Shown: positions 1,634 to 16,616, counted from the first letter of the stretch. The stretch: 19,865 bases of DNA from Deltaproteobacteria bacterium (GCA_002753725.1 PEAL01000065.1:1-19865), one strand, 5' to 3'. The notes: generated from the sequence alone by a model not told the origin. A program made the numbers and translations.

Positions 1634-1786
1634 TCAGGTTCTTTTATCGGATGCCAGAACAAGCAAGAGACCAATAATCGGTGTTAACAAAATGGATCCA
1701 AAAAAATATCCCCAAAAACCAAATTTTCGATTGGCTCCGAAAAGTCCAATGAACAAACAAATCATAAAATAGATTGCATAATGCAT
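1634..1786 (-). CDS. Small (50 aa) two-TM membrane protein, below the ORF-track length cutoff
   Basis: My own translation of the minus strand gives MHYAIYFMICLFIGLFGANRKFGFWGYFFGSILLTPIIGLLLVLASDKRT*. That is ATG at 1786-1784 and TGA at 1636-1634. The AAGGA of the heptamer repeat lies ~9 nt upstream of the ATG. The gene starts 19 nt downstream of the giant gene's stop on the same strand. The R-K-x-G-F-W-G...P-I-I-G-L pattern resembles a widespread small-membrane-protein motif that I recognise only by pattern. Confidence 0.6.
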   Translation of the reverse strand: MHYAIYFMICLFIGLFGANRKFGFWGYFFGSILLTPIIGLLLVLASDKRT

Positions 1787-1791
1787 ATGTG

Positions 1792-1816
1792 TTATTCCTT
1801 ATTCCTTATTCCTTAT
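1792..1816. repeat. Heptamer tandem repeat (ttattcc)x3.5, which is (ggaataa)n on the minus strand
   Basis: ttattcc occurs at 1792-1798, 1799-1805 and 1806-1812, followed by a partial ttat. On the minus strand this gives TAA in all three frames within 17 nt; the first (1808-1806) is the giant gene's stop. It also gives three AAGGA Shine-Dalgarno-like motifs ahead of the small ORF. Confidence 0.8.
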
Positions 1817-4800
1817 AAAAAATGATGGCTTCGGCACGCCGATTTTTTAGTTTTCCTTCTGGCGTTACATTTTCTGTAATGGGGCGTGTCTCGCCATAAC
1901 CTTTAGATGTCAGTCGCTGGGATGATATGTTAAAGGTTTTAATCAGATATGTTCGGATATAATCCGCGCGTTGCTGTGAAAGCTCTACATTTTTATCTTC
2001 ATCGCCGGAATTATCTGTATGTGCTTCAATCGTCGCATAAACATCAGGATACTGATTTAATAATTTTCCCAGAGCATTGATACGAGCATGGCTGATGGGT
2101 TTAATGGCTGATGCATAAAAATGAACATTTAAATCATAATGAAGCGATGTGTCTGATGTTGTCAGTTGTGCAAAGGCTGATTGAACAGGGGTTACATTAC
2201 CTGCCCGATCTCGTGCCTGGAGATGAATAAACCATCGGCCATCTTTTTGCGAGAGTGTCGTTTGGGTGATGGATTGAAAGTCACCCGATGGTATGGATGT
2301 CGGTTTTTGATCAATAACATATCGATAGTGAATGATTGGATCATTATCTTTCGCATGCCATGTCCATTGTTTTATTTTTTGAGGAATAATGTCATTAATC
2401 ATTGTATCAAAAACAGGAGGTGTATTATCCAATAATGCAGATACTGTATATACTTCACTGATATTCCCGGCCCTGTCCGTTGCCTGTACATGAATGTATC
2501 TTTTGCCATCACCCTCTGATATTTCAGCGGTATGATGGTCTTTAAAAGGCCCTGATGGCACTGAGATTTCCGATGAGTTGATGACCCATCGAAATGTGAC
2601 CTGTTGATCCATATCTGTAGCATTCCACGACCAGGTTTTCCTTTGTAAGGGTACAGGATCATCCTGAAGTCCATTAATCATCGGTTTTTGATTATCAATT
2701 ATTGCGGATACTGTTTTTACAGCACTGATATTTCCAGCGCGATCCTGTGCTTGTACATGAATATACCATCGCCCATTAACATCAGATAAGTGAGCCTGAA
2801 ATACAGGGCTAAAAACAGTTGATGGTGACGTTTCAGGTTTCTGATCAATATGATATCGGTACAAGATATTAGAATCAGCATCCCTGGCGGTCCATGACCA
2901 TTGAATCTGCTTTTGGGGAATCAAATGGTCTGCCAGACCTTCTATTTCCGGAGGAATCCTATCCAATATTGCGTAAACTGTTTTCGTGGCACTGACATTC
3001 CCAGCCCGGTCTTTGCCCTGGATATGAAAATACCAGACACCATTCGCATTGGAGAGGCCTGTTTCATTTGTGTGCGTAAAAGAACCTGTTGGCTCAGCAT
3101 CTGAGCGTTGATCAAGAAGCCATCGATAAGCAATCTGTTCATCATCATCGTTGGCGCGCCATTGCCATTGTTTGGATTGAACAGGTGTATCGTCATTTGA
3201 AAGGTGAGTGATTACGGGTGGTTTGTTATCTAACACACAATGGACAGTCAATACATTACTGATATTAAACGCCCTGTCTTGTGCCTGAACATGAAGATAA
3301 AACAAACCATTTTCATTTTCAAGCCGTGCTTGGGTTATTTGTGAGAATTGATTTTTCGGTACAGTGTAAGCATTTTGGTCAATGATATATCGATATTGAA
3401 TAAAGAGATCGTTATCTTTAGCGCTCCATTGCCATTGTTTGGATGTTGAAGGGGTGGTATCACTGGCAAGTTGTATTAGAATCGGTGGCTCATTATCCAA
3501 AATTGCTGAAACAGTTTTGACAGAACTTAGATTTCCTGCATAATCTTTCGCCTGAACATGTAAATACCATGTGCCATCTTTATCCGCGATGCGTGCCTTT
3601 GTGATATTTTTGAATAGGCCTGTTGGTATGGACTCAAAATTTTGATCAATAACATATCGATATCGAACATCAGTATGGGCATCATGGCTGTTCCAGTGCC
3701 ATTCTTTTTGTTGATGAGGAACTTTATCATCTTCCAGTCCAAAAATCTTTGGCGATTGATTATCCAATATGGCCACCGCTGTGGTAACCGGACTGATATT
3801 CCCTGCCTGATCTTTTGCCTGAATATGAATATACCATTTTCCATTGGATTGTTTCAACGTGGCTTGAGAGATATTCGTGTATTCTCCAGTTGGCACAGAA
3901 TCAGATGTCTGATCAATGGTATATCGATACAAGCATGACACTTCATTGGCAGCATCCCACGACCAGACCTTTTTTTGAACGGGAGTAAGATAATCAGTAA
4001 TGCCTGTGATTATGGGAGATGAACGATCGATGATTGCAGACACAGTCACGATATCACTCAAATTTCCAGCACGATCCCGTGCCTGTACATGGAGGTACCA
4101 CGTCCCTTCACCATTGGACAATTCACATGAATGATGATCGGTAAATGAGGTTGTTGGAATACCATTTGCCAATTGATCGACCTGATAGCGATATTGAGTA
4201 TATGAGTCATTATCCTCAACCTGCCATTGCCAATGGATGGTTTGTGCTGGTATTAAAACGTTATTCAAGCCGGTTATGACCGGAAGGGTAGTGTCTATCA
4301 CGATAGAAGCAGTGACAACATCACTGATATTATTCGCTGAGTCTCTGGCCTGTACATGAATAAACCAGAGCCCCTCCGTGTGGGACAGGCTCGCCTGGTT
4401 GATGGAATTAAACGAACCGGTTGGTTGTGATCGTTGTTTTTGATCAATGGAATATCGATAGTAAATGTTTGCATCAGTATCTTTGCCATACCATCTCCAA
4501 GTATGTGATTTCATAGGCTGATGAATATCTGAAAGCCCTGAAAGACTTGGGGCTGTACGATCAATAATGGCTGAAACGGTTTTGATGGGACTCAAATTAC
4601 CGGCGGTATCTTTAGCCTGTATGGATAAATAAAACACGCCTTCACCATCAGAAAAACTAACGGTATTGGTATAAGCAAACGTACCCGATGGTTTAATTTC
4701 AGGATGTTGTGTAATCACATAACGATACATCACATGAGGATCATCATCTCTTGCACGCCATGACCATTTTTTTTGCTGTGTTGGAATGGGATCAACGTTG

Positions 4801-7800
4801 ATATCCACTATTTCAGGGGCAATAGTATCCAGTCTGGCAGAGACAGTGACCACATTACTTACATTATCCGCCCTGTCCCTGGCCTGAACATGTAAATAGA
4901 ATATGCCATGATTATTGGAAATCTCTGCATATGTTATATCTGAAAAAGGACCAGAAGGTGTATATTGCTCAAAAGGGTTGATCGCATATCGATACATCAG
5001 TTCTGTATCCTGATCCTTTCCATGCCATATCCATTTTTTTTGGCTGACAGGGTTTATATCACTGGATAAGCCTTCAATGGTTGGAGGAATCGTATCAAAA
5101 TTTGCCCATACTGTTTGGGATGTGCTGATATTGCCAGCCCGGTCTTTTGACTGAACGTGAAGGAACCATCGGCCATTAATATTCTTTCCTGTAAAACAGG
5201 TCGTGGTATCAAAATCAGTTGAAAATTGTGCCTCGGAATGTTGAGTGAACGAATAACGCGATTTTACGCCGCTATCCTGATCAATTAATTGCCAGGCCCA
5301 TTGTTTGGACTGAACAGGATATGCAACAGAGGATAGCCCTTTTATTACAGGAGGAGTATTATCAAGAATACTTGACACTGTAACGATTTCACTGGTATTC
5401 CCAGCGCGATCCAGTGCCTGAACATGAATAAACCATGTCCCTTCAGCATTAGATAGATGAGCAGAGGTCACATGGGTAAAGGATGTTGTGGGGGATGCAT
5501 CGGCACGTTGATCGATAATATAGCGATGCAATACGTCTGGATCATTATCCAGGGTTGCCCATGTCCATGATTGATTCCTGACTGGATACAGATTATCTGT
5601 AAGTCCGATAATTTCAGGCGGGGTGTTGTCAATGATTGCAGAAACTGTGATGTGTTCACTAAGATTTCCTGCCTGATCTTTTGCCATAACATGCAAATAC
5701 CAGATGCCATCACCTTCTTCAATCGTGGCCTTGGCTTCTGGTTTGAATTGTCCAGATGGCGGTGCATCTTTATTTTGATCGATAGAAAATTGATAACTGA
5801 CGGTTTCATCCAAAGGTTCAGAATACCATGTCCATTTTTTCTGGTGTTTAGGTATAGAATCGTTTGAAAGCCCTTTAATGATTGGTGCTGTGTTATCCAA
5901 AATGGCTGAAACGCGAATTATTTCACTCAAATTGCCAGCACGGTCTTTTGCTTGAAGAAAAAGATAGCACATCTGATTTTCACCAGAGATTTCAACAGAT
6001 GTTTCATGCGTGTAAGAGCCGAACGGTTGTTTCTCAAGCGTTTTACTGATAGCATACCGATAGTCAAGGTATGGATCAGCATCATGGCCTTTCCATTGCC
6101 ATTTTTTTCTTTGTGTGGGAACGGGGTCATCATCTAACCCACTAATAACCGGGGCTGTGTTGTCCAGCAATTCAGAAACAGTGGCAACATTACTTTCATT
6201 TCCTGCGCGATCAATGGCCTGAACATGCAAATACCATCGGCCATCACCACTGGATATCGATGCCGTGTTCGTATATTGATAATTACCATCAGGTAAGGCG
6301 TTTTCATTTTGGGTGATTAAATACCGGTATACAATTTGGTGATCAGCGTCTTTTGCCTGCCAGTTCCATTTTATTTTTTTTACAGGATGCATTACAGGAG
6401 ATAATCCCGTGACTACCGGCTTTGTTGTATCGATGAGAGCTTTCACTGTAACCACAGAACTTAAATTGCCAGCAGTATCTTGTGCCTGTACATGGAGATA
6501 CCAAAGACCATCCGTTTCATAAATGGGTGTTGAATGAATCGTTGAAAAAATTCCCAATGGTTTGGAATCATAGAATTGATCAATTAAAATTCGAAAGCGA
6601 ACAGTGGGGTCAGCATCTTCTGCATGCCAAGAAAAAGATTTACTTCTTACCGGCGTTACTTCCCTGTCATCAGAAAGCCCCTTAATAACAGGCGGTAATT
6701 GATCCAACAGACAATATACATGATAAACCTTACTGAGATTGCCTGCCCAGTCTTTTGCCTGAACATGAAGATACCACCGCCCATCGACATCTTTAATTGT
6801 TGCGGTAGTTGTTTTTTTAAATTCTGTTTCAATGAGGGACTGTTCTTTCTGGTCAATGGTATACCGAAATGTCGCATTTTCATTTGAATGGGTTTTCCAG
6901 GCCCATATTTTCTGTTTTTTAGGAACGGAATCATTTTCAATACCCACAATTCTGGGAGGCACATTATCCAGAACCACAGAGACCGTGACAACATTGCTGA
7001 GATTTCCGGCGCGATCTGTTGCCTGAACATGGAGATAGCATAAGCCTTCAATATCTTTGGCAATCGCAGAATGTGTTGAATTAAACGGTCCTTCAGGTTT
7101 TGAATCAGGATGATGATCGATCAAATACCTGAAAAGAATAGTGGTATCATCATCCTTTGCTGACCATGTCCATCGTTTAACTGTTGTGGACGTTAATGAA
7201 TCAGACAGGCCGATAATTATTGGCGCTGTGGTATCAAGAATTGTCTGGACAGTGACAGTATTGCTTTCATTGCCTGCTGTATCGCATGCCTGAAGATGTA
7301 GATACCAGATACCATCATCATAATAATTTTTATCCAGTTGAATCATGCGGGTGAATGTATATGCACCTTTTGGATGAGAATCGGCAAACTGATCGACAAG
7401 ATATCGAAACCGAACATTGGGGTCAGCATCGTTTGCTGATAGCATCCATTTTTGTATGGACACTGGCGTAATCGAATGAGCAATATCATTAATGAGTGGT
7501 GGTATGGTGTCAATTGTAATGGATAACAACTCAGAAATACTGATATTTTCATCACTCTGGGTTTGATAATGTGCAGATAATTCATGTGTCCCTTCAGTCA
7601 AATCAATGTTAAACTGAAAAATATCTGCTGTGATGACTGTCGTTGCCCCTGATAAAGCATTTCCATCAACAAGAAGAACCACTGTCTGGTCGATATCTCC
7701 GAATCCTTGAATGTGTAAATTTTTAGATTGGCGGGTGATCCTATCGGTATTGAAAAAACCTGTATCATGTTCAGGTTCCAAGGATAGATTATATGGTTTT

Positions 7801-8693
7801 GGGTAGTGTGAATAAATGCCTTCTCCCCAGAAAATGTCAGCATGTTCTGTTTTATTCACCGCATTTTGTTTATTTCGAATATTGGTATACGCAATTGAAA
7901 TGGCATTGGAATCAGCATATTCAGACAAATAAATTTCATAGGGCATTTGTTCATTCCACAACGTTGCATGCGTCATAGTAAGAGAAGAATGATAAGCAAA
8001 AATGGCAGAGGAAACAGGGGCATCATTAACGGGGTGATTTTGGGTTAAAACCGTGCGAAATATATTTATCGTTGATTTTTGGGCGTAAATGGCTATTCCG
8101 GAAGTGGCTTTATTGTTCATCAATGTGACATTCGATAAGATCATATCTGAACCCTGACAATATATCCCTGCACCTGAACTGTTTGCTGTATTATGGACAA
8201 TGGCTGTTTGAGTGAGAGTCATGTTAGCGTACACGCAATATATACCACCGCCTTGTTCTGCGGTATTTTCTTTGATAATGACATTCACGAATTGAGGTGA
8301 TGCACCTCTGCAATAGACCCCTCCGCCGAGGTAAAAGGATTTTATGTCAGCTTTTCCATTGATGAGCGAAACATTACTGATGTGCGTTTTTTGATCCACA
8401 ATACCACCCAATGATTCATCAAAAAGCAACACACTTGAACGTTGGCAGCCATCAATGATTGTCTTGTTCTTGTCTTCACCAGACAGCTGAATGCCATTGA
8501 CTTTTGGCCATATAATATTTTCACGATAATTCCCATTTTTAATCAAAATGGTATCGTTGGATGTTGCAGAATTCAATGCTTGCTGGATGGTTTTAAAATC
8601 CGCTGGTACATGTAACATACGTGCATATGTGATTGAACATGCAAATAATAAAAAAAGAATACAAAATAAATATGGTTTAATGCTTGTTCTCAT
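1806..8693 (-). CDS. Giant (2295 aa) envelope or surface protein with four parts: lipoprotein-type signal, Pmp-like parallel beta-helix, 20 Ig-like tandem repeats, C-terminal OmpA-like peptidoglycan-binding domain
   Basis: - **Start:** chosen at M38 of the ORF-track frame (ATG 8693-8691), 11 nt after the upstream gene's stop. The resulting N-terminus is MRTSIKPYLFCILFLLFAC, with lipobox L-F-A-C.
- **aa ~62-335:** GGGVYC/GGGIYC/GAGIYC alternating with (I/V/L)xxNxA, the GGA(I/L/V)+FxxN pattern of polymorphic-outer-membrane-protein / PbH1 beta-helix repeats.
- **aa ~360-436:** an Ig-like module.
- **Repeat array:** 20 repeats (see the repeat feature).
- **C-terminus (nt ~1809-2126):** IEAHTDNSGDEDKNVELSQQRADYIRTYL...GYGETRPI...NRRAEAIIF, which matches the OmpA_C-like signature (TD..G....N..LS..RA..V..YL / G.G...P / NRR.E). 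Confidence 0.93.
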   Translation of the reverse strand: MRTSIKPYLFCILFLLFACSITYARMLHVPADFKTIQQALNSATSNDTILIKNGNYRENIIWPKVNGIQLSGEDKNKTIIDGCQRSSVLLFDESLGGIVDQKTHISNVSLINGKADIKSFYLGGGVYCRGASPQFVNVIIKENTAEQGGGIYCVYANMTLTQTAIVHNTANSSGAGIYCQGSDMILSNVTLMNNKATSGIAIYAQKSTINIFRTVLTQNHPVNDAPVSSAIFAYHSSLTMTHATLWNEQMPYEIYLSEYADSNAISIAYTNIRNKQNAVNKTEHADIFWGEGIYSHYPKPYNLSLEPEHDTGFFNTDRITRQSKNLHIQGFGDIDQTVVLLVDGNALSGATTVITADIFQFNIDLTEGTHELSAHYQTQSDENISISELLSITIDTIPPLINDIAHSITPVSIQKWMLSANDADPNVRFRYLVDQFADSHPKGAYTFTRMIQLDKNYYDDGIWYLHLQACDTAGNESNTVTVQTILDTTAPIIIGLSDSLTSTTVKRWTWSAKDDDTTILFRYLIDHHPDSKPEGPFNSTHSAIAKDIEGLCYLHVQATDRAGNLSNVVTVSVVLDNVPPRIVGIENDSVPKKQKIWAWKTHSNENATFRYTIDQKEQSLIETEFKKTTTATIKDVDGRWYLHVQAKDWAGNLSKVYHVYCLLDQLPPVIKGLSDDREVTPVRSKSFSWHAEDADPTVRFRILIDQFYDSKPLGIFSTIHSTPIYETDGLWYLHVQAQDTAGNLSSVVTVKALIDTTKPVVTGLSPVMHPVKKIKWNWQAKDADHQIVYRYLITQNENALPDGNYQYTNTASISSGDGRWYLHVQAIDRAGNESNVATVSELLDNTAPVISGLDDDPVPTQRKKWQWKGHDADPYLDYRYAISKTLEKQPFGSYTHETSVEISGENQMCYLFLQAKDRAGNLSEIIRVSAILDNTAPIIKGLSNDSIPKHQKKWTWYSEPLDETVSYQFSIDQNKDAPPSGQFKPEAKATIEEGDGIWYLHVMAKDQAGNLSEHITVSAIIDNTPPEIIGLTDNLYPVRNQSWTWATLDNDPDVLHRYIIDQRADASPTTSFTHVTSAHLSNAEGTWFIHVQALDRAGNTSEIVTVSSILDNTPPVIKGLSSVAYPVQSKQWAWQLIDQDSGVKSRYSFTQHSEAQFSTDFDTTTCFTGKNINGRWFLHVQSKDRAGNISTSQTVWANFDTIPPTIEGLSSDINPVSQKKWIWHGKDQDTELMYRYAINPFEQYTPSGPFSDITYAEISNNHGIFYLHVQARDRADNVSNVVTVSARLDTIAPEIVDINVDPIPTQQKKWSWRARDDDPHVMYRYVITQHPEIKPSGTFAYTNTVSFSDGEGVFYLSIQAKDTAGNLSPIKTVSAIIDRTAPSLSGLSDIHQPMKSHTWRWYGKDTDANIYYRYSIDQKQRSQPTGSFNSINQASLSHTEGLWFIHVQARDSANNISDVVTASIVIDTTLPVITGLNNVLIPAQTIHWQWQVEDNDSYTQYRYQVDQLANGIPTTSFTDHHSCELSNGEGTWYLHVQARDRAGNLSDIVTVSAIIDRSSPIITGITDYLTPVQKKVWSWDAANEVSCLYRYTIDQTSDSVPTGEYTNISQATLKQSNGKWYIHIQAKDQAGNISPVTTAVAILDNQSPKIFGLEDDKVPHQQKEWHWNSHDAHTDVRYRYVIDQNFESIPTGLFKNITKARIADKDGTWYLHVQAKDYAGNLSSVKTVSAILDNEPPILIQLASDTTPSTSKQWQWSAKDNDLFIQYRYIIDQNAYTVPKNQFSQITQARLENENGLFYLHVQAQDRAFNISNVLTVHCVLDNKPPVITHLSNDDTPVQSKQWQWRANDDDEQIAYRWLLDQRSDAEPTGSFTHTNETGLSNANGVWYFHIQGKDRAGNVSATKTVYAILDRIPPEIEGLADHLIPQKQIQWSWTARDADSNILYRYHIDQKPETSPSTVFSPVFQAHLSDVNGRWYIHVQAQDRAGNISAVKTVSAIIDNQKPMINGLQDDPVPLQRKTWSWNATDMDQQVTFRWVINSSEISVPSGPFKDHHTAEISEGDGKRYIHVQATDRAGNISEVYTVSALLDNTPPVFDTMINDIIPQKIKQWTWHAKDNDPIIHYRYVIDQKPTSIPSGDFQSITQTTLSQKDGRWFIHLQARDRAGNVTPVQSAFAQLTTSDTSLHYDLNVHFYASAIKPISHARINALGKLLNQYPDVYATIEAHTDNSGDEDKNVELSQQRADYIRTYLIKTFNISSQRLTSKGYGETRPITENVTPEGKLKNRRAEAIIFYKE
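2163..7496 (-). repeat. 20 tandem, diverged ~89-aa (~267-bp) coding repeats inside the giant gene
   Basis: Each unit carries W-x-W...D-x-D...(Y/F)-R-Y...D-Q...P-x-G...G-x-W-(Y/F)-(L/I)-H-(V/I)-Q-A-x-D-x-A-G-N-x-S...(L/I)-D-N-x-P-P-x-I-x-G-L. I counted 20 occurrences of the HVQA.D.AGN core (e.g. WYLHVQAKDWAGNLS, WFIHVQARDSANNIS). The D.AGN...V.V.D..PP.I ending resembles HYR/bacterial Ig-like beta-sandwich repeats, but I cannot assign the exact family by eye. The copies are diverged at the DNA level, so this is not a recent amplification. Confidence 0.9.
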
Positions 8694-8704
8694 GTTCTGT
8701 CCAT

Positions 8705-10858
8705 TTAATTGACGACAATCGAATAAAAATAATAAAAATAACCTGCTATCATAAAAAGAGATAAAAAAAGTCCTGTACATTTTACTCTTGGTATTGCCTG
8801 ACAAAAGCCTTTTCGATTCAAGCCGGCAATAATAAGTGTCAACACAAATGAAAGGCCTGTCATAAGGTAAAGAAGAATAAACCAGTGATCAAATGGGATA
8901 AGATAATCAACAGATATTTCAGACAGGAAGTAATATAAGAACGATACCACTCCCAGGCATGACAGATGGGCAAACATCGCAATCAGTGTATGGGAAGGAA
9001 TGATGAATAAAAGGCAGGATAAAAGACCCATAATAATGCATCCAGGAACAAAACATCGCAACCACTGATGAAAAGAATCTCGATGAATAAGGATTTGAAT
9101 TCTATAATCCGGGTTATGTTCTTGATTAAATTGCGAATAATCAACCTTAGGTTGCGTTGTCATGCCATAAGCATAGCAGCGATTCAGTTTCCAGTTGGAA
9201 AGGTTAAATCGATCATTGTCATTGAGACTGATTTCTTTGTTAATATATCTCATTTCATTACTTTTTAATGTATTATGATAAAAATGAATACCTAACTTTT
9301 GTTTATCAAAAGGGTATGTATGGTACAAAAAATTTATCTTAAAGGATCCCTTAATGCTGTATTTTTTATACAAGACACCATCAAGGGTTCCACTTTCAAC
9401 AGGATCGTCTAAAACAACAGGTGTTGTTGCATTTAAAAAGCAAATATCTGCGGGGTCGATTACCGGGGTGTCATACAAGAATGTCAGAAAAAAATGAGCC
9501 GTAAAGAACGATTCTTTTATATCCAGTTCAACGATTTCAGTTTTTACCTGAACAATCGATACGTGTTGAATATCTGATTCATAAGGATTTGTATGGTTTA
9601 ATTTAGATTTCATGTCCATCAGAAACTGTTGGTGAAAAGGAACAAGTACCCCTTTTTGATAGTGACCCAGACCTGTATTTTTTATTGCATTTCCATTATC
9701 ATCAAAAAAGATATCACCGCAGATTCCTTTAAAAGCATAATCAGGTTTCTTTATATCGGTAAGAAAATTTTTTATTTGACGTCTGTACTGGTAAGATCGT
9801 GCAGTGGGGTCAATTTCCATTTTTCTAAGAATATCTGCCATCAGAAGTGTGGCATCATAATAATTTGTTGCAATAGACGATGGAACGTTACGATATTTTT
9901 CATAATAGGCCTTAAAAAAGTCTACAGATTGAGAATTAAACAAATAATTCGCAAAGATATCATTTGCAGTTGTGAAAACACCATCTGAATAATAACCAGG
10001 AATTGATTTTTCCAGGGCAATTGTTCGTAATTCGTTTTGAAACGATTCATATGAAAATACATGACCATTGGTTATAAAAAAGTGAGGATCAAAAGCGTTT
10101 AATTTTTCAATAATCTGAACAGCCAGGCGATCAGATGTTGCAATAAAAACAGAGCTTTTTGCTTTAGATGTTTTAAACATTCTAACGATGGTTTGCAGTT
10201 GTGGATAAATATTTTTTTCTTCATCAATATCAATTGTATTTTCAATTTTAATGCCGTTATTTTTGAAAAAATTCATATATGTATTTTTGATATCACGACT
10301 ATAAATATCTTTAGATGCAATAATGGTTACAGGTGACCATTTACAATACTGCTTTGAAAACATAGCCAGAAATGTTGCCTGATGGAGAGAGGATGGTATG
10401 GATCGAAAATACCATTCATTGTTTAATGTAACATTCGTTGCTGGTGCTGAGGCGGTAATCGCGGGGATACCTTCTTTTAAATAAACCTGCCCGGCAGAAA
10501 AACTGGCAGCGCTGCTATAATGCCCAATAACAAAAAGCAGATGGTCATTTCTTGAGAATGAATTGGCAACTTTCATGGCAAGATTGGTTTTATTCATGTC
10601 ATCTTTATAGATATATTTCAATTTTTTACCATCAATACCGCCATTTGCATTGATTTTTTCTATACATAAATCAATACCCCGAAGCATTTCTTTGCCATAT
10701 TCTTCATCCGCCCCACTGAATGGGCCTGCAACACCAAACAGGCACACATCTTGATCACTGTGATAGATATCAAATACACTCAATAGTAGTAGTATACCGA
10801 TAAACAGTATCACAATTAAAATAATCAATAGGCCTTTATTTAAAATGAATTGTTTCAT
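8705..10858 (-). CDS. Type-I periplasmic binding protein (LivK/ANF-receptor-like) fused to a pentameric ligand-gated ion channel (Cys-loop superfamily) module: paralogue A, 717 aa
   Basis: - **N-terminus:** signal anchor LLIILIVILFIGILLLLSVF.
- **aa ~38-410, PBP-I motifs:** FGVAGPFSGADEEYGKEMLRGIDLCIEKINANGGIDGKKL, FVIGHYSSAAS, IPAITASAPATNVT, EWYFRSIP.
- **aa ~432-592, pLGIC extracellular-domain pattern:** IVQVKTEIVELDIKESFFTAHFFLTFLYD, CFLNA, and the signature loop YPFDKQKL (nt 9293-9316).
- **Transmembrane part:** IHRDSFHQWLRCFVPGCII (pre-M1 Arg plus M1 Pro) and four TM helices with a very short M3-M4 loop, including an IPFDHWF M3 start. Confidence 0.85.
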   Translation of the reverse strand: MKQFILNKGLLIILIVILFIGILLLLSVFDIYHSDQDVCLFGVAGPFSGADEEYGKEMLRGIDLCIEKINANGGIDGKKLKYIYKDDMNKTNLAMKVANSFSRNDHLLFVIGHYSSAASFSAGQVYLKEGIPAITASAPATNVTLNNEWYFRSIPSSLHQATFLAMFSKQYCKWSPVTIIASKDIYSRDIKNTYMNFFKNNGIKIENTIDIDEEKNIYPQLQTIVRMFKTSKAKSSVFIATSDRLAVQIIEKLNAFDPHFFITNGHVFSYESFQNELRTIALEKSIPGYYSDGVFTTANDIFANYLFNSQSVDFFKAYYEKYRNVPSSIATNYYDATLLMADILRKMEIDPTARSYQYRRQIKNFLTDIKKPDYAFKGICGDIFFDDNGNAIKNTGLGHYQKGVLVPFHQQFLMDMKSKLNHTNPYESDIQHVSIVQVKTEIVELDIKESFFTAHFFLTFLYDTPVIDPADICFLNATTPVVLDDPVESGTLDGVLYKKYSIKGSFKINFLYHTYPFDKQKLGIHFYHNTLKSNEMRYINKEISLNDNDRFNLSNWKLNRCYAYGMTTQPKVDYSQFNQEHNPDYRIQILIHRDSFHQWLRCFVPGCIIMGLLSCLLFIIPSHTLIAMFAHLSCLGVVSFLYYFLSEISVDYLIPFDHWFILLYLMTGLSFVLTLIIAGLNRKGFCQAIPRVKCTGLFLSLFMIAGYFYYFYSIVVN

Positions 10859-10889: not shown

Positions 10890-13037
10890 TTAAAGCGGAA
10901 AACAACAGTTGACCACATAAAAAGATATCATCATTATCGTAATCAAACATGCTGCCTTTCCCAAAAATTGAACGAACGCCATTGATTGCTTATAATGATG
11001 GATCGATAAGCCTATCAGTCCCATTTGAAACATGATTGTCAACCCAATAAAACCATACAAACACATAAACAGCATTTCAGAGAATGTCAGAAATGGTATG
11101 TGTAATTTGAAATATAAATGGCATACAGTAGTGATCATCAGGAATATGATATTGATCACCAATGAAATTTTTATTCGATGCACAGGACAAAAATAACTGA
11201 TCGATGTCAGTAGAAAAAGAATAAGACAGGCAATAAAAATAAGCTTTTCCTGCTGATTCAGGCGCCTTTGAATATGAATATCAACAGCGAATTCAGATGC
11301 GTTATTCTTAATATCTCCTGACAATGGGCTTTTTATTAAATAAGGCATCGCGTCCACAGATAGCCATGTTTCAGAATTCAATTTAAAACTTATTTTATTT
11401 AGCTGATCAATAGCAAATATAAACGTGTTTGTGTTTACGCTTGTATCCCGAAAACTTATGGTCAGTTTTTGGCTGTCTATGGGATATCGTTTAAGGTCAA
11501 AGTGATGATAAAATACACTATCCACGGTGTATAACAGATGTGTGGTACCTTGTTTATTCATAGTTTTTTTAGGATTTTTCAATACAAGCGGAGAAACAGC
11601 GTTGGTAAATTGAATCCATTCAGGTTGAAAATGCTTTTGAAAACTAAACCAGAGATTAAACCGGGCATGAAATGTACCATCTATCGTATTGATTTGATTT
11701 AATTGAATATCATCTATCCTTACATACACTAATTGTTTTTTGATAAAATAATCATCATTGTTTGCCATAACGTCATTATCTAATGCTTTTTGAATCAAAT
11801 CATTGGAAATATCATTGAGTGAAACAGCGATGTATTGATGAAAGGCGGGAATATAATGGCCCTTGTATAATTGAGTGACAATCATTGACTTTTTCGTTTC
11901 GCCAACACCATTAAAAAATATTTTTCCGGTTAAGCCCTCCACACAGTGATTCCTATCATAGAATGTTTCAAGTGCATTTTTGAATTTTTTTCTGATGTCC
12001 CGGATAGCCCCCTGTATCTCAATTTTTCTTAATGCTTCAATGCTAACATGTGCCAGATCATAAGATGTCGTACTGATTAATGAAGGCGGTACTCCATAAA
12101 AGGTATAATAATTCTTTTCAAAAATTCTATTGATTTGTTTTGAAAAATACTGAGAAAACAACGATACAGAGTAGATACCATTTGAATAAAAACCGGGTGA
12201 GGATTGTTCTTTGGGATACGCTTTGAATCCATCGATAAAAATTTGAGATGCCAAGGAATCTGCGCCCATAATGATTTGATTCAGTTGCTTCTTTTTCAAA
12301 CCAACCACCAATTTTACAGACGTATCAGCGTGGGTTGCCAAAAAAAACATATCAGGTTTTAACGCATGCGTATCAATGGCCTGTACAATAGTATCAACCT
12401 GATCATCCATACTCGTTGAACTCGAATCCAATGGATATTGTTCAACAATCTCAATTCCTTTTTCCAGTGCTTGTTCTGTAAATACTGCTGCTAAATTTTT
12501 ACCATATGCCCCTGTATCATAAACAATCGTTGCGGTTTTAAGATTCAATGCTGATTGTGCGTAAGCAGCAAGAAAATCACTTTGACAGGAATTTGGTGGG
12601 ACAATTCTGAACAACCATTCATTCATAATCGGCAAGTCATCAGATGTTGCTGAACCGGTTATTGATGGAATCATGTTGTTTTCATAAATAGAGGCAGCCG
12701 CAGTGCAGCAGGAACTGAAATAATGTCCCAGAACAAAAAGAATGTCCTTGTTTCGAACAATTTGTTTTGCTGCACCGACAGCGCCTTCTTCGGTGCCTTT
12801 ATCGTCAAAAACAAGCAGCTTGATCTGGCTGCCATGAAGTCCTCCTGAGGCGTTTATTTGATCAATATAGAATTGTACCCCTTTAACCATTTCATTTCCA
12901 TAAAAAGACTGGGAACCACTGAATGTACTCGCAACCGCAATATAAAGCGTTTTCTTGCCATAATACAAATGAATCGTATAAAATATGGAAATCAACATGC
13001 TTATCAGTAAAATTATAATAATATATTTTTTCATCAT
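10890..13037 (-). CDS. Type-I periplasmic binding protein fused to a pLGIC (Cys-loop superfamily) module: paralogue B, 715 aa
   Basis: - **Start:** chosen at M20 of the ORF-track frame (ATG 13037-13035), 2 nt after the upstream TAA (13042-13040). This gives MMKKYIIIILLISMLISIFY.
- **PBP-I motifs:** YIAVASTFSGSQSFYGNEMVKGVQFYIDQINASGGLHGSQIKL, FVLGHYFSSCC, IPSITGSATSDDL, EWLFRIVP.
- **pLGIC part:** LVYVRIDDIQLNQINTIDGTFHARFNLWFSF, QFTNA, HHFDLKRYPIDSQKLTISF (YPIDSQKL at nt 11463-11486), IHIQRR, then four TM helices.
- It is collinear with paralogue A throughout. Confidence 0.85.
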   Translation of the reverse strand: MMKKYIIIILLISMLISIFYTIHLYYGKKTLYIAVASTFSGSQSFYGNEMVKGVQFYIDQINASGGLHGSQIKLLVFDDKGTEEGAVGAAKQIVRNKDILFVLGHYFSSCCTAAASIYENNMIPSITGSATSDDLPIMNEWLFRIVPPNSCQSDFLAAYAQSALNLKTATIVYDTGAYGKNLAAVFTEQALEKGIEIVEQYPLDSSSTSMDDQVDTIVQAIDTHALKPDMFFLATHADTSVKLVVGLKKKQLNQIIMGADSLASQIFIDGFKAYPKEQSSPGFYSNGIYSVSLFSQYFSKQINRIFEKNYYTFYGVPPSLISTTSYDLAHVSIEALRKIEIQGAIRDIRKKFKNALETFYDRNHCVEGLTGKIFFNGVGETKKSMIVTQLYKGHYIPAFHQYIAVSLNDISNDLIQKALDNDVMANNDDYFIKKQLVYVRIDDIQLNQINTIDGTFHARFNLWFSFQKHFQPEWIQFTNAVSPLVLKNPKKTMNKQGTTHLLYTVDSVFYHHFDLKRYPIDSQKLTISFRDTSVNTNTFIFAIDQLNKISFKLNSETWLSVDAMPYLIKSPLSGDIKNNASEFAVDIHIQRRLNQQEKLIFIACLILFLLTSISYFCPVHRIKISLVINIIFLMITTVCHLYFKLHIPFLTFSEMLFMCLYGFIGLTIMFQMGLIGLSIHHYKQSMAFVQFLGKAACLITIMMISFYVVNCCFPL

Positions 13038-13039
13038 AT

Positions 13040-15721
13040 TTAATTCAGTTGCCAATCTTTGATATTCTGTCCACCAAGAGCCATATGAGACCAATTTTTA
13101 ATGCGTGGTTTTATAAGGTAATGGTCGGTTTCATAGAAAATGGGGATTACAAGCGTCTCTCTTTGGGTCAGAATCTCATCGATCATTAAATAATAGTCTT
13201 TTCTTAAATGTAAATTTTTTTCTTTTATGGCTTTATTCAACACATCAGATAATTCTGTATTGATATAACTGTTCTGGCGGCTAAGCTTGTTATATGAATC
13301 AAACAAAAAACTATTGGCATCAGGAAAAGTCGCATACCAGTCAGAAATGAAAATATGAGCCTGTCTGGGATTGTATGAACCAGGTTCTGTAAGACCGATG
13401 ACAGTGGATTGAAGATTCAATCTTTTTTTAAGTAGTAATGAAATCGCTTTGGCAATTTGTTTATGGGAATCATGGATTCCTGAATCAATTAGAATTGCAG
13501 GGCATCCTTTTCCGCCAGGATAGCCCGCTTCGGCTAACATTTTCATGGCATGAGTGGGATGGTAAACAGGCCGTTTCTCCTGACTTGACAGCAATAATAA
13601 ATCAGGGGGTATAAACATTTTCATTGCCTTTTGTTGCCCATGAATGACGAACCTGGTAATAAATGAGCGATCAATAACAGACGCAATGGCTTTTCGTAAC
13701 AAAACATTATCCACAGGGGATTGATTCACATTGAAAAAAAGGCCGGTTGTAGAAAAATTGGTACGTTCTTGATAGTCATGTCGGGTTTCAGGTTGCTTTT
13801 TGACCGAATCAAGAAAACGCGATGGGATGTTTATAAAAGCCCCCCCAAGAATATCCAGTTGATTGTTTTGATACATATGCAAAGCAAGCAGGCTGTTCAT
13901 GATAACGTTATAACGCACTTCCTGAATGGCAACAGTTGAAGCATCATAATAGCGGTCATTTTTTCGTAAAATAATCAAAGAGCCTTTTTCATGACAAGCC
14001 AGTTGAAAGGGACCATTACTGACAATATGTTCAGGGGCTGTCCATTCAGCAGCCCATTTTTGAATCGTTGCCGAAGGCAGAGGGCTGAAAACAGGCAGTC
14101 CGGTGATTGAAGGAAAAAATGCAGCAGGATAGGACAGGATAAAATCAATGGTATAATCATCAATAACGTTGACCCCCAGTTTTGATGCATCTTTGATGAA
14201 TCCTAGATGAATGTCCTGGGCATTTTTGAGTATGAATAAGTGTTTTACATCCGGGCATTGGGTTTCAGGGGTCAAATTTCTAACTATTGCAAATCTCAGA
14301 TCGTGAGCTGTCACCGGCTGTCCGTTTGTCCAGAACACATTTTTTCGCAATTTAAACCGGTAACGATCTAAGGTTTCATTCGGTTCCCAACTCGTGGCAA
14401 AGTCCGGGGAAGACTGATAGGTGTCAGGATGGTATTGAGTCAGGCGTATAAACAATTGCTTTGATAATTCAGTTGTTATTTTATCATGGGCAAGCCCCGG
14501 GTCTAATCGTGAAACATCATTGTTACAAAACCTGTTTATATTGAAAGAATCGACCAGGTCAAAAAAATCATCCTGCTTTTTTTCTTTTCGATTAATAATG
14601 ACAAATTTTCCATCTTCATATTTTTTAAAAAATAAAGCGGATGGCCCGATATTTCCTTGTCGTGTCAGATGATATTGACTTAAAACACCATCCCAATGTT
14701 CCATGAATCTAAGAGTTGTATTTAAAACCATTGGTAAACATGAATTACTTTTTTCCATTGACGTTTTAAGCAAATGAATCAGATCATAACCCCGGGCAGC
14801 AAATGTTTCAGGCTCAACGCCAAAGGCTTGCGTAAAACTGGAAACAAAATCTTGTGTTAATTTTCTGGGAAGTGTGTTGTCAAAGTTGCTTGGGATGATG
14901 GTTCCTTCAGCTTTTTTTCCAGTATTACTCCAAAAATAGCGTGTGTCAATTTCATCGGTGGCCATAATTGGGGTATTGATATTCAACTCTCTCATCTGAT
15001 TTACCACCAATGCTGCGATGTTATCTCTGCATAATAATAAAACAATGTCAAAGGATTCATTTTTTAAATCACTTAAGATATCTCTGAAATTTGTTTCAGA
15101 TCGAGAAAAGGATTGTTGAGATACAATCGCAAGGCCTTTTTGTGTGGCCTCTTCATAAAAAATATCAGCAAGAATCTTACTGGTTTTCTGGCGGTCATTA
15201 AGGATAATAATGCGCTGATAGTGGTTTTGAGAGAAACATTCAGCAATTCTTCTAACATATACTTGATCTGGCATATAATTATTAAAAATATAGGCCCCGC
15301 CATAGCGTAATAAATCCGCCCCTGTAGAAAAAAATAATATGCCAGCTTCTTTGTATACGATTGATGCAGAAATAGCATTTTGAGGACTAAAATGTCCGAT
15401 AACAGCAAAAACATTTTTATTTTTAGCTAATTTTTCTGCAATGCGAATGGATGTTTTTTCATCATCATAATCATAAAACAAAAGCGGTCTGATCCTTTTC
15501 CCCATAACGCCGCCATCGCTGTTTATTTCATCCATAGCCAGTTTAACGCCATGAGCAAACTGTGTGGTAGCAGGGAATGCGTCCACAATTCCAATGAAAA
15601 GATCATCGGTTGATCGGGTCAAATGCTTCATGCGCTCTTCATTGGAAATAACCTTGTTACATGAAAAAAATGTAAGAAGGAGTACAATAAAAGCAAAATG
15701 TAAAACGATGATTGGTTTCAT
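13040..15721 (-). CDS. Probable lipoprotein fusing two solute-binding domains: N-terminal LivK-type PBP-I plus C-terminal family-5 (OppA/DppA/NikA-type) SBP, 893 aa
   Basis: - **Signal:** MKPIIVLHFAFIVLLLTFFSC (Cys21, an imperfect lipobox F-F-S-C).
- **aa ~40-378, PBP-I:** FIGIVDAFPATTQFAHGVKLAMDEINSDGGVMGKRIRPL, FAVIGHFSPQNA.
- **aa ~390-893, family-5 SBP pattern:** LDPGLAHDKITTELSKQLFIRL, SWEPNETLDRYRFKLRKNVFWTNGQPVTAHDLRFAI, VSNGPFQL, LRKNDRYYD.
- It ends 2 nt before the next gene's ATG. Confidence 0.88.
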   Translation of the reverse strand: MKPIIVLHFAFIVLLLTFFSCNKVISNEERMKHLTRSTDDLFIGIVDAFPATTQFAHGVKLAMDEINSDGGVMGKRIRPLLFYDYDDEKTSIRIAEKLAKNKNVFAVIGHFSPQNAISASIVYKEAGILFFSTGADLLRYGGAYIFNNYMPDQVYVRRIAECFSQNHYQRIIILNDRQKTSKILADIFYEEATQKGLAIVSQQSFSRSETNFRDILSDLKNESFDIVLLLCRDNIAALVVNQMRELNINTPIMATDEIDTRYFWSNTGKKAEGTIIPSNFDNTLPRKLTQDFVSSFTQAFGVEPETFAARGYDLIHLLKTSMEKSNSCLPMVLNTTLRFMEHWDGVLSQYHLTRQGNIGPSALFFKKYEDGKFVIINRKEKKQDDFFDLVDSFNINRFCNNDVSRLDPGLAHDKITTELSKQLFIRLTQYHPDTYQSSPDFATSWEPNETLDRYRFKLRKNVFWTNGQPVTAHDLRFAIVRNLTPETQCPDVKHLFILKNAQDIHLGFIKDASKLGVNVIDDYTIDFILSYPAAFFPSITGLPVFSPLPSATIQKWAAEWTAPEHIVSNGPFQLACHEKGSLIILRKNDRYYDASTVAIQEVRYNVIMNSLLALHMYQNNQLDILGGAFINIPSRFLDSVKKQPETRHDYQERTNFSTTGLFFNVNQSPVDNVLLRKAIASVIDRSFITRFVIHGQQKAMKMFIPPDLLLLSSQEKRPVYHPTHAMKMLAEAGYPGGKGCPAILIDSGIHDSHKQIAKAISLLLKKRLNLQSTVIGLTEPGSYNPRQAHIFISDWYATFPDANSFLFDSYNKLSRQNSYINTELSDVLNKAIKEKNLHLRKDYYLMIDEILTQRETLVIPIFYETDHYLIKPRIKNWSHMALGGQNIKDWQLN

Positions 15722-15746: not shown

Positions 15747-16616
15747 TTAATTTTTATCACCATTTGTTTCTGTATTCAGAATTAAAGGCAATCCATTCTT
15801 GCCACTGCCAATAATAATAATTTTTGAATTTTGTGATTCTGCAAGTTTTTCAGTGGCTTTAATCCCTTGCCAATTGAGATATTGTTCTTTATTGAAAAGG
15901 GATGATGCAATGGTGTTCAAATGATCTCGGATACCTTCTGCTTCAATTCTTTTTCGGGTTGCTTCTTTTTTTTCTCGCTCAATAACATAAGTATGGGCTT
16001 CCGCCAGATGTTTTTGTTTGATTTTATTACGAATGGATTCGGCCACTTCTTCAGGAAGTATGATCCCCCGAACAAGAACATCATCAATATTGATATAGCG
16101 TTGAGCGACCTGTTCTATGGCTTTATTGATAGCCTCCACAATTAATTTTCTTCCCGTGGTGTAAACTTCTTCAGCATTCAATGTACCAATAATTTCACGA
16201 ATAACAGCTTCTATTTCAGGAATAATCACCTTATCCGCATACTCCATTCCCACTTGCTGATGTAATACACCAAGAAGTTTATATTCAGGCGCATAGCGAA
16301 TAGAGAGTTTAATATGAACTTGCAAACCATTTTTAGTGAGGACATCCATTTCCGGTTTAATTTCCTGGATACGAACATTATAGACGTACATTTTATCCCA
16401 GGGAAGAATTAAGTGAAGACCTTCTGAATAAACAGAAAGGATATCTGTTCCACCAAAAAAACGACTCCAAAACACCGCTGCTTCACCTGGATAAATATTG
16501 TATACAATCATATTAAACAGGAAAGCAAAGGTCAATAAAGCAATCAAAATGGTCAGAATGAGAGAAAAGGTATAATTTTTTAATTTGATAAAAAAGTTCT
16601 TGAACCTGTTTTTCAT
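15747..16616 (-). CDS. SPFH/Band-7 (prohibitin/HflC-like) membrane protein, 289 aa
   Basis: The start is chosen at M28 of the ORF-track frame (which opens on TTG), giving MKNRFKNFFIKLKNYTFSLILTILIALLTFAFLF, an N-terminal membrane anchor. SPFH core: PGEAAVFWSRFFGG...GLHLILPWDKMYVYNVRIQE...TKNGLQVHIKLSIRY. A charged coiled-coil follows: KQKHLAEAHTYVIEREKKEATRKRIEAEGI. It is the first gene of the minus-strand operon. Confidence 0.88.
   Translation of the reverse strand: MKNRFKNFFIKLKNYTFSLILTILIALLTFAFLFNMIVYNIYPGEAAVFWSRFFGGTDILSVYSEGLHLILPWDKMYVYNVRIQEIKPEMDVLTKNGLQVHIKLSIRYAPEYKLLGVLHQQVGMEYADKVIIPEIEAVIREIIGTLNAEEVYTTGRKLIVEAINKAIEQVAQRYINIDDVLVRGIILPEEVAESIRNKIKQKHLAEAHTYVIEREKKEATRKRIEAEGIRDHLNTIASSLFNKEQYLNWQGIKATEKLAESQNSKIIIIGSGKNGLPLILNTETNGDKN

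Follow-up and report, generated by a model that had tools for sequence, protein, structure and literature searches.

The stretch of DNA considered here, called the window throughout, comprises 19,865 nucleotides (nt) from a deltaproteobacterium (GCA_002753725.1, PEAL01000065.1:1-19865). Its main subject is a gene on the minus strand, at 1806..8693, for a giant protein in which a β-helix, a series of immunoglobulin (Ig)-like repeats and an OmpA_C-like domain follow an export signal. The architecture of this protein alone is unremarkable for these giant-protein-rich bacteria; its most interesting aspect is the operon coupling, and the conserved six-gene module of which the gene is part is the main new result and the part worth pursuing. 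An earlier note, made from the sequence of the window, had given the position of the reading frame exactly (1806-8693) and had left its operonic coupling to channel genes unexplained; that coupling is real, and it is conserved over loci.

The reading frame has 2,295 codons and begins with an ATG at 8693. A TTG at 8804 would give a longer version, but one that runs into the upstream gene; none of the homologues uses this start. NCBI lists the protein as ‘OmpA family protein [Candidatus Magnetomorum sp.]’, and two proteins of Ca. Magnetomorum sp. HK-1 are amongst its best relatives; Ca. Magnetomorum belongs to the multicellular magnetotactic bacteria of the Desulfobacterota. The G+C content is 39–42% in the giant gene (window positions 2001-8000), compared with approximately 33% in the channel genes and flanks; the higher value may stem from the amino acid composition of the repeats, or from a different history. 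The genes and features are listed below in the direction of transcription.

15747..16616, minus: SPFH/Band_7 protein with an N-terminal transmembrane (TM) helix; probable start MKNRFKNFF
13040..15721, minus: fusion lipoprotein of 893 residues, LivJ-like periplasmic binding protein (PBP) plus OppA-like SBP_bac_5; lipobox Cys conserved
10890..13037, minus: channel A, predicted by profile search to be a paralogous fusion of PBP and pentameric ligand-gated ion channel (pLGIC); probable ATG at 13037, the listed TTG at 13094 being too far upstream
8705..10858, minus: channel B, predicted by profile search; TM helix, LivJ-like PBP (Peripla_BP_6) and pLGIC (extracellular domain and four TM helices)
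1806..8693, minus: whole giant gene, 2,295-residue β-helix/Ig-like repeat/OmpA_C protein; 100% identical to the NCBI entry
8622..8693, minus: Sec signal peptide, residues 1-24, with a probable signal peptidase I (SPase I) site T-Y-A/R (the slash marks cleavage); position of the site kept in 14 of 14 members
8637..8648, minus: lipobox-like L-F-A-C, residues 16-19; fits a PROSITE-type pattern, unconserved (1 of 14)
7794..8621, minus: right-handed parallel β-helix head, residues 25 to approximately 300 (Pfam, AlphaFold 2, Foldseek)
7506..7790, minus: Big_13 Ig-like module, residues 302-396 (Pfam, AlphaFold 2)
2151..7490, minus: twenty 89-residue FN3/Ig-like repeats, residues 402-2181 (AlphaFold 2, Foldseek, NCBIfam NF047446)
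1821..2111, minus: OmpA_C-like peptidoglycan-binding domain, residues 2195-2291 (Pfam, NCBIfam, PDB)
1634..1786, minus: membrane protein of 50 residues, the operon's final gene, 19 nt beyond the giant gene

The channel module and its conservation

The giant gene is found in one and the same channel module at 11 distinct loci (13 retrieved), in two gene orders. In type A (the window, L001, L099, L002, L003/L034, L035, L036 and L037), the order is Band_7, PBP/SBP5, channel A, channel B, a giant gene with 15 to at least 27 repeats, and the small gene; in type B (L032/L040, L038, L039 and L041), it is the small gene, PBP/SBP5, a single channel, Band_7 and a giant gene with 6–9 repeats. Channel and giant genes are separated by only 2–11 nt or overlap by 4–19 nt, and the linkage persists through the change in gene order and down to 35% protein identity. 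Three more distantly related loci carry simpler versions. In L097 (Logan SRR28370465, 2801-11852), Band_7, PBP/SBP5, a pair of channels and the small gene are present and the giant gene is absent; L094 and L095 contain no more of the module than an SBP_bac_5 gene with a PBP-channel after it. Because the module thus occurs without it, the giant protein can be regarded as a lineage-specific addition to a pre-existing channel module. The second channel of L097 is longer (849 residues), and this locus is a natural comparison for the contribution of the giant protein. The HK-1 assembly has two copies of the operon (L001 and L099; JPDT01000241 and JPDT01001924), the giant protein having 15 repeats in one and at least 27 in the other; a single consortium or cell may therefore harbour several paralogous modules.

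The proteins encoded by genes A and B have approximately 715 residues, with an N-terminal TM helix, a Peripla_BP_6/ANF_receptor domain and a C-terminal half that contains four TM helices. The C-terminal halves have no Pfam match, even at an E-value of 10, and a lone channel sequence reaches only E 0.05 against the PDB; a nine-sequence profile was therefore needed to make the assignment. Compared with the PDB, the profile of the C-terminal halves retrieves GLIC, ELIC, DeCLIC and a GABA-A chimera with E-values from 4e-12 to 1e-10, in alignments that cover approximately 200 collinear positions. On the strength of this profile, the two upstream genes are taken to encode PBP-fused pLGICs. The earlier note had described the neighbours as channel genes separated from the giant gene by 11 nt, and both statements are borne out, the first by profile matches with E-values of approximately 1e-11 and the second by the interval from the channel B stop to the giant ATG (8694-8704). 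The PBP-channel family is rare, with 16 matches in 5.8 billion proteins. Its public annotation is incomplete, in that the NCBI names of both channel proteins miss the channel half: the window copy (P0194) is called ‘ABC transporter substrate-binding protein’, and the HK-1 relatives (P0196 and P0201) bear names of the same type.

Amongst the other partners, the fusion lipoprotein has a lipobox in each of four loci (FFSC, YTAC, ITAC and LFSC, always followed by N). No gene for an ATP-binding cassette (ABC) permease or ATPase is adjacent to its gene, and the recipients of its ligands are therefore probably the channels and not a transporter. In the SPFH protein, a TM helix comes after a strongly basic N-terminus; the nearest NCBIfam models, HflK and HflC, both score below their cut-offs. 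The 50-residue membrane protein, MHYAIYFMICLFIGLFGANRKFGFWGYFFGSILLTPIIGLLLVLASDKRT, matches no family; it is 72–90% identical in the other type A loci, 49% in type B and 64% in L097. A terminator scan places terminator-like hairpins at 1587-1626, after its gene.

The distribution of the family was surveyed with a word-free HMMER scan of 1.84 billion representatives, in which the query was the last two repeats plus the OmpA domain and the matches were re-scored with hidden Markov models built from the window protein. The repeat type is widespread, and the giant proteins that contain it may begin as lipoproteins, end in dockerin-like sequences or have other termini; the β-helix, these repeats and OmpA_C are combined in only 13 proteins of that scan. 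Nine more loci came from a metagenome scan, every one of them in a single JGI sample. In all there are five sources: the metagenome-assembled genome (MAG) of the window and HK-1, both Magnetomorum assemblies, and three metagenome samples. A single N-domain peptide pattern run over 185,579 species-representative genomes found no orthologue, not even in Ca. Magnetomorum, which indicates little beyond rarity; the same scan returned just 50-residue matches to the N-cap, in Bacteroidota and others. Complete members have 6, 9, 15, 20 or 23 repeats; a further member, cut short by the end of its contig, has at least 27. A fixed-length periplasmic ruler was considered and is rejected in view of this range.

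Some features of the surroundings should be noted. At L031, a paralogue of the giant protein (P0009) is encoded directly downstream of a 1,243-residue DUF748 protein (L031 1332-5063), a family that we take to be AsmA-like, and in L095 (2052-6215) a YhdP-family gene lies approximately 2 kb upstream of the SBP5 and PBP-channel pair, on the opposite strand; envelope-spanning proteins of lipid-transport type thus recur close to these genes. In the window, the plus strand has a gene at 18214-19716 for a tetratricopeptide repeat (TPR) plus SlipAM (Slam-like) β-barrel protein (Pfam 33.3 bits versus a cut-off of 22), which is unexpected for a Desulfobacterota genome and is not kept beside the operon in other loci. 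Also on the plus strand, two adjacent and apparently paralogous multi-TM proteins (191-967 and 973-1566) converge on the end of the operon; neither has a Pfam or NCBIfam family, a match to TrbL being sub-threshold. Genes for outer-membrane barrels or for secretion are not conserved at any of the examined loci. The papers covered by a literature search included none that links pLGICs to an SPFH protein or operon, an OppA-like lipoprotein or a peptidoglycan-anchored giant protein, nor one that ties multicellular magnetotactic bacteria to ligand-gated channels.

Domains of the giant protein

The C-terminus contains an OmpA domain (PF00691) at residues 2195-2285, with 62.2 bits (cut-off 27.2); in NCBIfam models the match continues to residue 2291 of 2,295. 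The last 110 residues can be aligned over their full length with the C-terminal domain of OprF (5u1h, E 6e-21), and likewise with the further PDB matches, which are OmpA of Acinetobacter baumannii (3td3), YiaD, MotY and Pal. In the alignment with 3td3, HTDNSG...SQQRA is paired with HTDNTG...SLARA, such that the Asp of HTDNxG and the Arg of xxRA are both retained; this Asp and Arg are reported by Park et al. in 2012 to contact the diaminopimelate (DAP) of the stem peptide. By its sequence, the C-terminus belongs to the true OmpA_C family and has an intact peptidoglycan-binding motif, and binding is predicted. The linker from the last repeat to OmpA_C has only approximately 5–13 residues, which leaves no room for a membrane barrel.

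At the other end, the protein begins with MRTSIKPYLFCILFLLFACSITYARMLHVP, in which L-F-A-C (residues 16-19) matches a PROSITE PS51257-type lipobox expression, with a Phe at position -2 that is atypical of the strict consensus. The earlier note had proposed an N-terminal lipobox from this L-F-A-C. The fit to the pattern stands; its conservation does not, since the pattern occurs in one of 14 family N-termini, that of the window protein, and the Cys is absent or out of context in the other 13, most of which lack Cys entirely. An n-region, an h-region and a small-x-small SPase I site are common to all 14, with small residues at -3 and -1 (TYA/R, TDA/R, LYA/K, SVA/R, LSA/R, TNA/E, ALA/R, SYA/A and others) and with cleavage predicted 1–4 residues ahead of the invariant V-P of the β-helix N-cap. 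P0002, a relative with 69% identity, reads FFLCFAFSTTDA/R and lacks a lipobox. The adjacent PBP/SBP5 fusion serves as an internal control: its lipobox Cys, followed by Asn, is retained in all four loci checked, and genuine lipoboxes are therefore conserved in this gene cluster. The family is probably processed by SPase I, judging from these N-termini, and L-F-A-C is most likely a chance pattern within an h-region rich in Cys and Phe. Export of the giant protein by Slam as a surface lipoprotein was considered and rejected because the lipobox is unconserved and the Slam-like gene does not accompany the operon at the other loci.

The presence of a lipobox together with OmpA_C had been described in the earlier note as a pair of apparently conflicting anchors. 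This description does not hold, because the combination is standard in Pal, YiaD, YfiB, LptF, PA1041 and PorE: a lipid anchor in the inner leaflet of the outer membrane plus a C-terminal OmpA_C is the ordinary Pal-type layout, in which both anchors are periplasmic. The sole true oddity is the length of the stretch between the two possible anchors. In addition, processing by SPase I would by itself dissolve the paradox, and it is the probable course of events, with the site present in 14 of 14 members and the lipobox in one. The loss of the paradox spares a false lead.

The beginning of the mature protein consists of GGxIY/NxA coils preceded by an N-cap, VPxDFKTIQxAL. The Pfam Chlam_PMP repeat (PF02415) is found in two stretches (22.7 bits versus a cut-off of 20.6), with weaker matches of the N-cap to Pectinesterase and DUF1565; the Pectinesterase match spans only the N-cap, residues 31-85. 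An AlphaFold 2 model of the N-terminal 379 residues (predicted local distance difference test, pLDDT, 85) is a right-handed β-helix followed by a sandwich. Its structural neighbours in Foldseek are phage tailspikes, GH28, GH87, pectin methylesterase, the Vibrio matrix lyase RbmB and rhombotarget A, with modest E-values of 3e-4 and weaker. The model places the head in the class of carbohydrate-binding or carbohydrate-processing β-helices, a fold that does not demonstrate catalysis, and no catalytic motif of pectinesterase or other enzymes was recognized in it. The Pmp-type β-helix of the earlier note is thus confirmed, as is its single Ig-like module ahead of the repeats (Big_13, residues 302-396).

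The repeats follow at residues 402-2181. There are exactly 20, spaced 88–91 residues apart (mostly 89), in agreement with the 20 consecutive repeats of approximately 89 residues that had been counted before. Their consensus is W-x-W...D-x-D...Y-R-Y-x-I-D-Q...G-x-W-Y-L-H-V-Q-A-x-D-R-A-G-N-x-S...L-D-N-T-P-P. To call this motif invariant, as had been done, overstates the case: only D, A and N of D-x-A-G-N are present in all 20, the G, Q and S, the D of L-D-N and the second P occur in 19, the H in 18 and the W in 14. The repeats are approximately 40% identical to one another (range 22–58%) and Tandem Repeats Finder detects no DNA-level tandem repeat in the giant gene; they are therefore old rather than an artefact of assembly, and both a recent expansion and an assembly artefact are rejected.

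The fold of the repeats was modelled with AlphaFold 2 for repeats 15-16, using an in-register alignment of 26 non-overlapping di-repeats, divergent repeats of homologues included, over 193 columns. The model (pLDDT 96.1, predicted template modelling score 0.82) is all-β with 16 strands, eight per repeat, and has 153 Foldseek matches in the PDB at E ≤ 1e-3, at the top of which are tandem FN3 domains (Clostridium thermocellum CbhA, integrin β4 and contactins), the BIg domains of SiiE (TMq up to 0.60), GhpA and titin. The earlier assignment of the repeats as Ig-like agrees with these modelled β-sandwiches, for which ‘FN3/BIg-like’ would be the more precise label. The NCBIfam OmpL47-type domain (NF047446) sums to 194.7 bits over the array (cut-off 40), no individual repeat passing alone, and the OmpL47 equivalog model (NF047441) remains below its cut-off (114.5 versus 250 bits).

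In solved adhesins each sandwich adds approximately 3.3–4 nm (e.g. SiiE, approximately 175 nm for 53 domains). By analogy, the rod would measure roughly 70–90 nm here, and roughly 25–30 nm in the members with six repeats. Fully extended, some 21 sandwich modules would span several periplasm widths, as had been supposed. It does not follow that the protein must cross the outer membrane or bridge cells, because a thin rod may lie in the plane of the periplasm, the number of repeats ranges from 6 to at least 27, and no conserved translocator is found nearby.

Possible location and role

We consider it the most likely of the readings, with a rough probability of 0.45, that the giant protein is a periplasmic, peptidoglycan-tethered rod that acts for the channel module as anchor, spacer or mechanical link. 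In such a scheme, the protein would be exported by Sec and probably cut by SPase I, and would form a long thin rod with a β-helix head of carbohydrate type at its N-terminus, then Big_13 and then the 20 FN3/Ig-like modules. The OmpA-like C-terminus would hold DAP-containing stem peptides non-covalently from the periplasmic side, and the protein would remain periplasmic, fastened to the wall and extending more or less within the plane of the envelope. Retention in the periplasm appears most likely because there is no outer-membrane translocator, other sorting signal or conserved outer-membrane partner. The giant protein would be a lineage-specific accessory of an envelope module made up of pLGICs with LivJ-like sensors, the fusion lipoprotein, the SPFH scaffold and the small membrane protein, and its role would be to fix, position or mechanically couple this channel module to the cell wall. 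The partner proteins all have large periplasmic parts, namely the PBP domains of the channels, the lipoprotein with its conserved lipobox and the HflK/C-like SPFH protein. This wall-fixing role would be analogous to that of the OmpA-like domains of MotB/PomB, MotY and TssL. It is from such considerations that we infer a periplasmic location, physical contact with the channel module and an anchoring role.

Several points weigh against this reading. A β-helix head on a long Ig-like stalk corresponds to the classic layout of a surface adhesin, and by sequence the same type of repeat is present in surface-exposed OmpL47 and in many giants with lipoprotein or dockerin-like ends. The four-fold range in repeat number (6 to at least 27) resembles that of surface fibres more than that of a fixed spacer. 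Linkage of genes indicates shared function or regulation, not physical contact, and two paralogues, P0009 (L031) and P0060 (L033/L042), are not beside channel genes. Given the fit to the lipobox pattern, lipidation may occur in the window species only.

Some of these points would be accommodated by a fibre at the cell surface or between cells, in which OmpA_C is held on the wall, the stalk passes through the outer membrane by an unspecified route, and the head reaches matrix polysaccharide or a neighbouring cell. This is unlikely, but several points speak for it: the head-on-stalk plan and the FN3/BIg fold are like those of SiiE and GhpA, the β-helix is like that of tailspikes that bind or cleave polysaccharide and of the matrix lyase RbmB, the repeat type occurs in the surface-exposed OmpL47 (PMC2698987), and repeat number varies as in surface adhesins. 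The family was also found only in the two Magnetomorum assemblies and the three metagenome samples, and how multicellular magnetotactic bacteria adhere is still open (PMC11239054). Nevertheless, the giant protein has no β-barrel, no signal for type V, type I or type IX secretion (T5SS, T1SS or T9SS) and no conserved lipobox, only approximately 5–13 residues separate the last repeat from OmpA_C, and the loci share no conserved gene for an outer-membrane or secretion protein. We know of no precedent for threading folded tandem sandwiches across the outer membrane without a dedicated pore. It is somewhat less probable again that the protein is a wall-associated scaffold, or a peptidoglycan-anchored polysaccharide lyase or hydrolase, that merely shares a promoter with the channel genes. 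The orphan paralogues of L031 and L033, which have no channel neighbours, are consistent with this, as are the occurrence of the module without a giant gene and a β-helix fold that is common to GH28, GH87, pectin methylesterase and polysaccharide lyase enzymes; it is at odds with a linkage kept in the 11 distinct loci across both gene orders, where gaps are small or stop and start codons overlap, and with a head in which no catalytic motif is recognized and only the N-cap is covered by the pectinesterase match.

Two further possibilities are more doubtful still. One is a doubly anchored, Pal-like lipoprotein of the outer membrane, with Cys19 lipidated, the C-terminus on peptidoglycan and the rod arched or lying flat between membrane and wall. 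L-F-A-C with its basic n-region and 12-residue h-region fits PS51257, a Ser at +2 would, by the rules of E. coli, allow Lol to sort the protein to the outer membrane, and the Slam-like gene is 10 kb away. Against these stand the missing or displaced Cys in 13 of 14 members, including P0002, a good SPase I site five residues after Cys19 and the lack of any Slam-like neighbour in the other loci; moreover, even if true, this would be a normal Pal topology and no paradox. The other, and the least probable of those considered, is that the giant protein is an extracytoplasmic, wall-anchored tether of ligand-gated channels, the other end of which is attached to the channel/lipoprotein/SPFH assembly or to envelope polysaccharide, such that deformation of the envelope or contact between cells is converted into ion flux. 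If so, it would be a bacterial counterpart of the touch complexes of stomatin, channel and extracellular matrix, or of channels tethered in the manner of tip links, and could help to coordinate the cells of an obligately multicellular magnetotactic consortium.

An SPFH scaffold, a binding-protein lipoprotein, PBP-fused pLGICs, a rod predicted to bind peptidoglycan and a small membrane protein constitute a new genetic module, with graded simpler relatives. The physiological roles of prokaryotic pLGICs are unclear, and the partner genes offer hypotheses in the form of ligand delivery by the lipoprotein, a cage formed by the SPFH protein and anchoring to the wall. These can be tested with recombinant proteins although the hosts are uncultured. 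No bacteria other than the multicellular magnetotactic ones are known to lack a unicellular stage. How their cells adhere to each other and are coordinated is unexplained (PMC11239054), and the same paper names OmpA/F porins only generically.

Comparison with known systems

In the public record the protein has only the name ‘OmpA family protein’. It is not Pal, a Pmp autotransporter, an inverse autotransporter or a T1SS adhesin, since for each of these a characteristic trait was looked for and is absent. The closest likeness at the two ends is to Pal, YiaD, YfiB, LptF, PA1041 and the T9SS protein PorE, in which an N-terminal export signal, here with a lipobox, is combined with a C-terminal OmpA_C and both ends are periplasmic; the NCBIfam models of all six match the C-terminal domain of the giant protein. 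It differs from Pal-type lipoproteins in the approximately 2,150 residues of β-helix and 21 sandwiches that lie between signal and anchor, and in its unconserved lipobox. Its scores with the equivalog models lie far under their cut-offs; the Pal model (TIGR02802), for example, reaches 46.2 bits against a cut-off of 125.35, and the window has no tol genes.

The rod and its head have parallels elsewhere. SiiE, LapA/MpIBP, GhpA of Aureispira and OmpL47 of Leptospira share the tandem BIg/FN3-like rod with a terminal functional domain, but these are T1SS substrates or surface proteins without OmpA_C, whereas the giant protein has a Sec signal and a predicted periplasmic wall anchor. The exposure of OmpL47 at the surface is documented by proteinase K, immunofluorescence and biotinylation assays (PMC2698987). 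Amongst the inverse autotransporters of the intimin/invasin type, intimin combines peptidoglycan binding in the periplasm with an Ig-like rod and a head at its far end; the giant protein differs from intimin in having no outer-membrane β-barrel and in the reversed order of domains relative to the anchor. With the chlamydial Pmp proteins it has in common the GGA(I/L/V)/FxxN β-helix, the Chlam_PMP repeat being detected in it, but its C-terminus is OmpA_C and not an autotransporter β-barrel. The Pfam and NCBIfam scans found no RTX or C-terminal secretion signal, no LysM plus barrel, no T9SS C-terminal domain and no barrel family anywhere in the protein.

With respect to the operon, there is a parallel with MotB/PomB, MotY and TssL, whose OmpA-like domains fix membrane machines, ion-conducting stators included, to peptidoglycan: here too, the gene for an OmpA_C protein accompanies those of an inner-membrane ion channel, which the domain could hold to the wall. 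In the present module the predicted anchor is on a separate soluble giant protein rather than on a TM subunit, and, in contrast to stators of the MotA/ExbB type, the predicted channel is a pLGIC and the coupling is suggested by gene linkage only. Prokaryotic pLGICs with extra N-terminal domains are known, although their function is unclear (PMC12664993), and such channels were described by Tasneem et al. in 2005, as far as that work is related in PMC12664993. The channels of the module resemble those of DeCLIC type in their added periplasmic N-terminal domain, and differ from them in that this domain is here a PBP of LivJ type.

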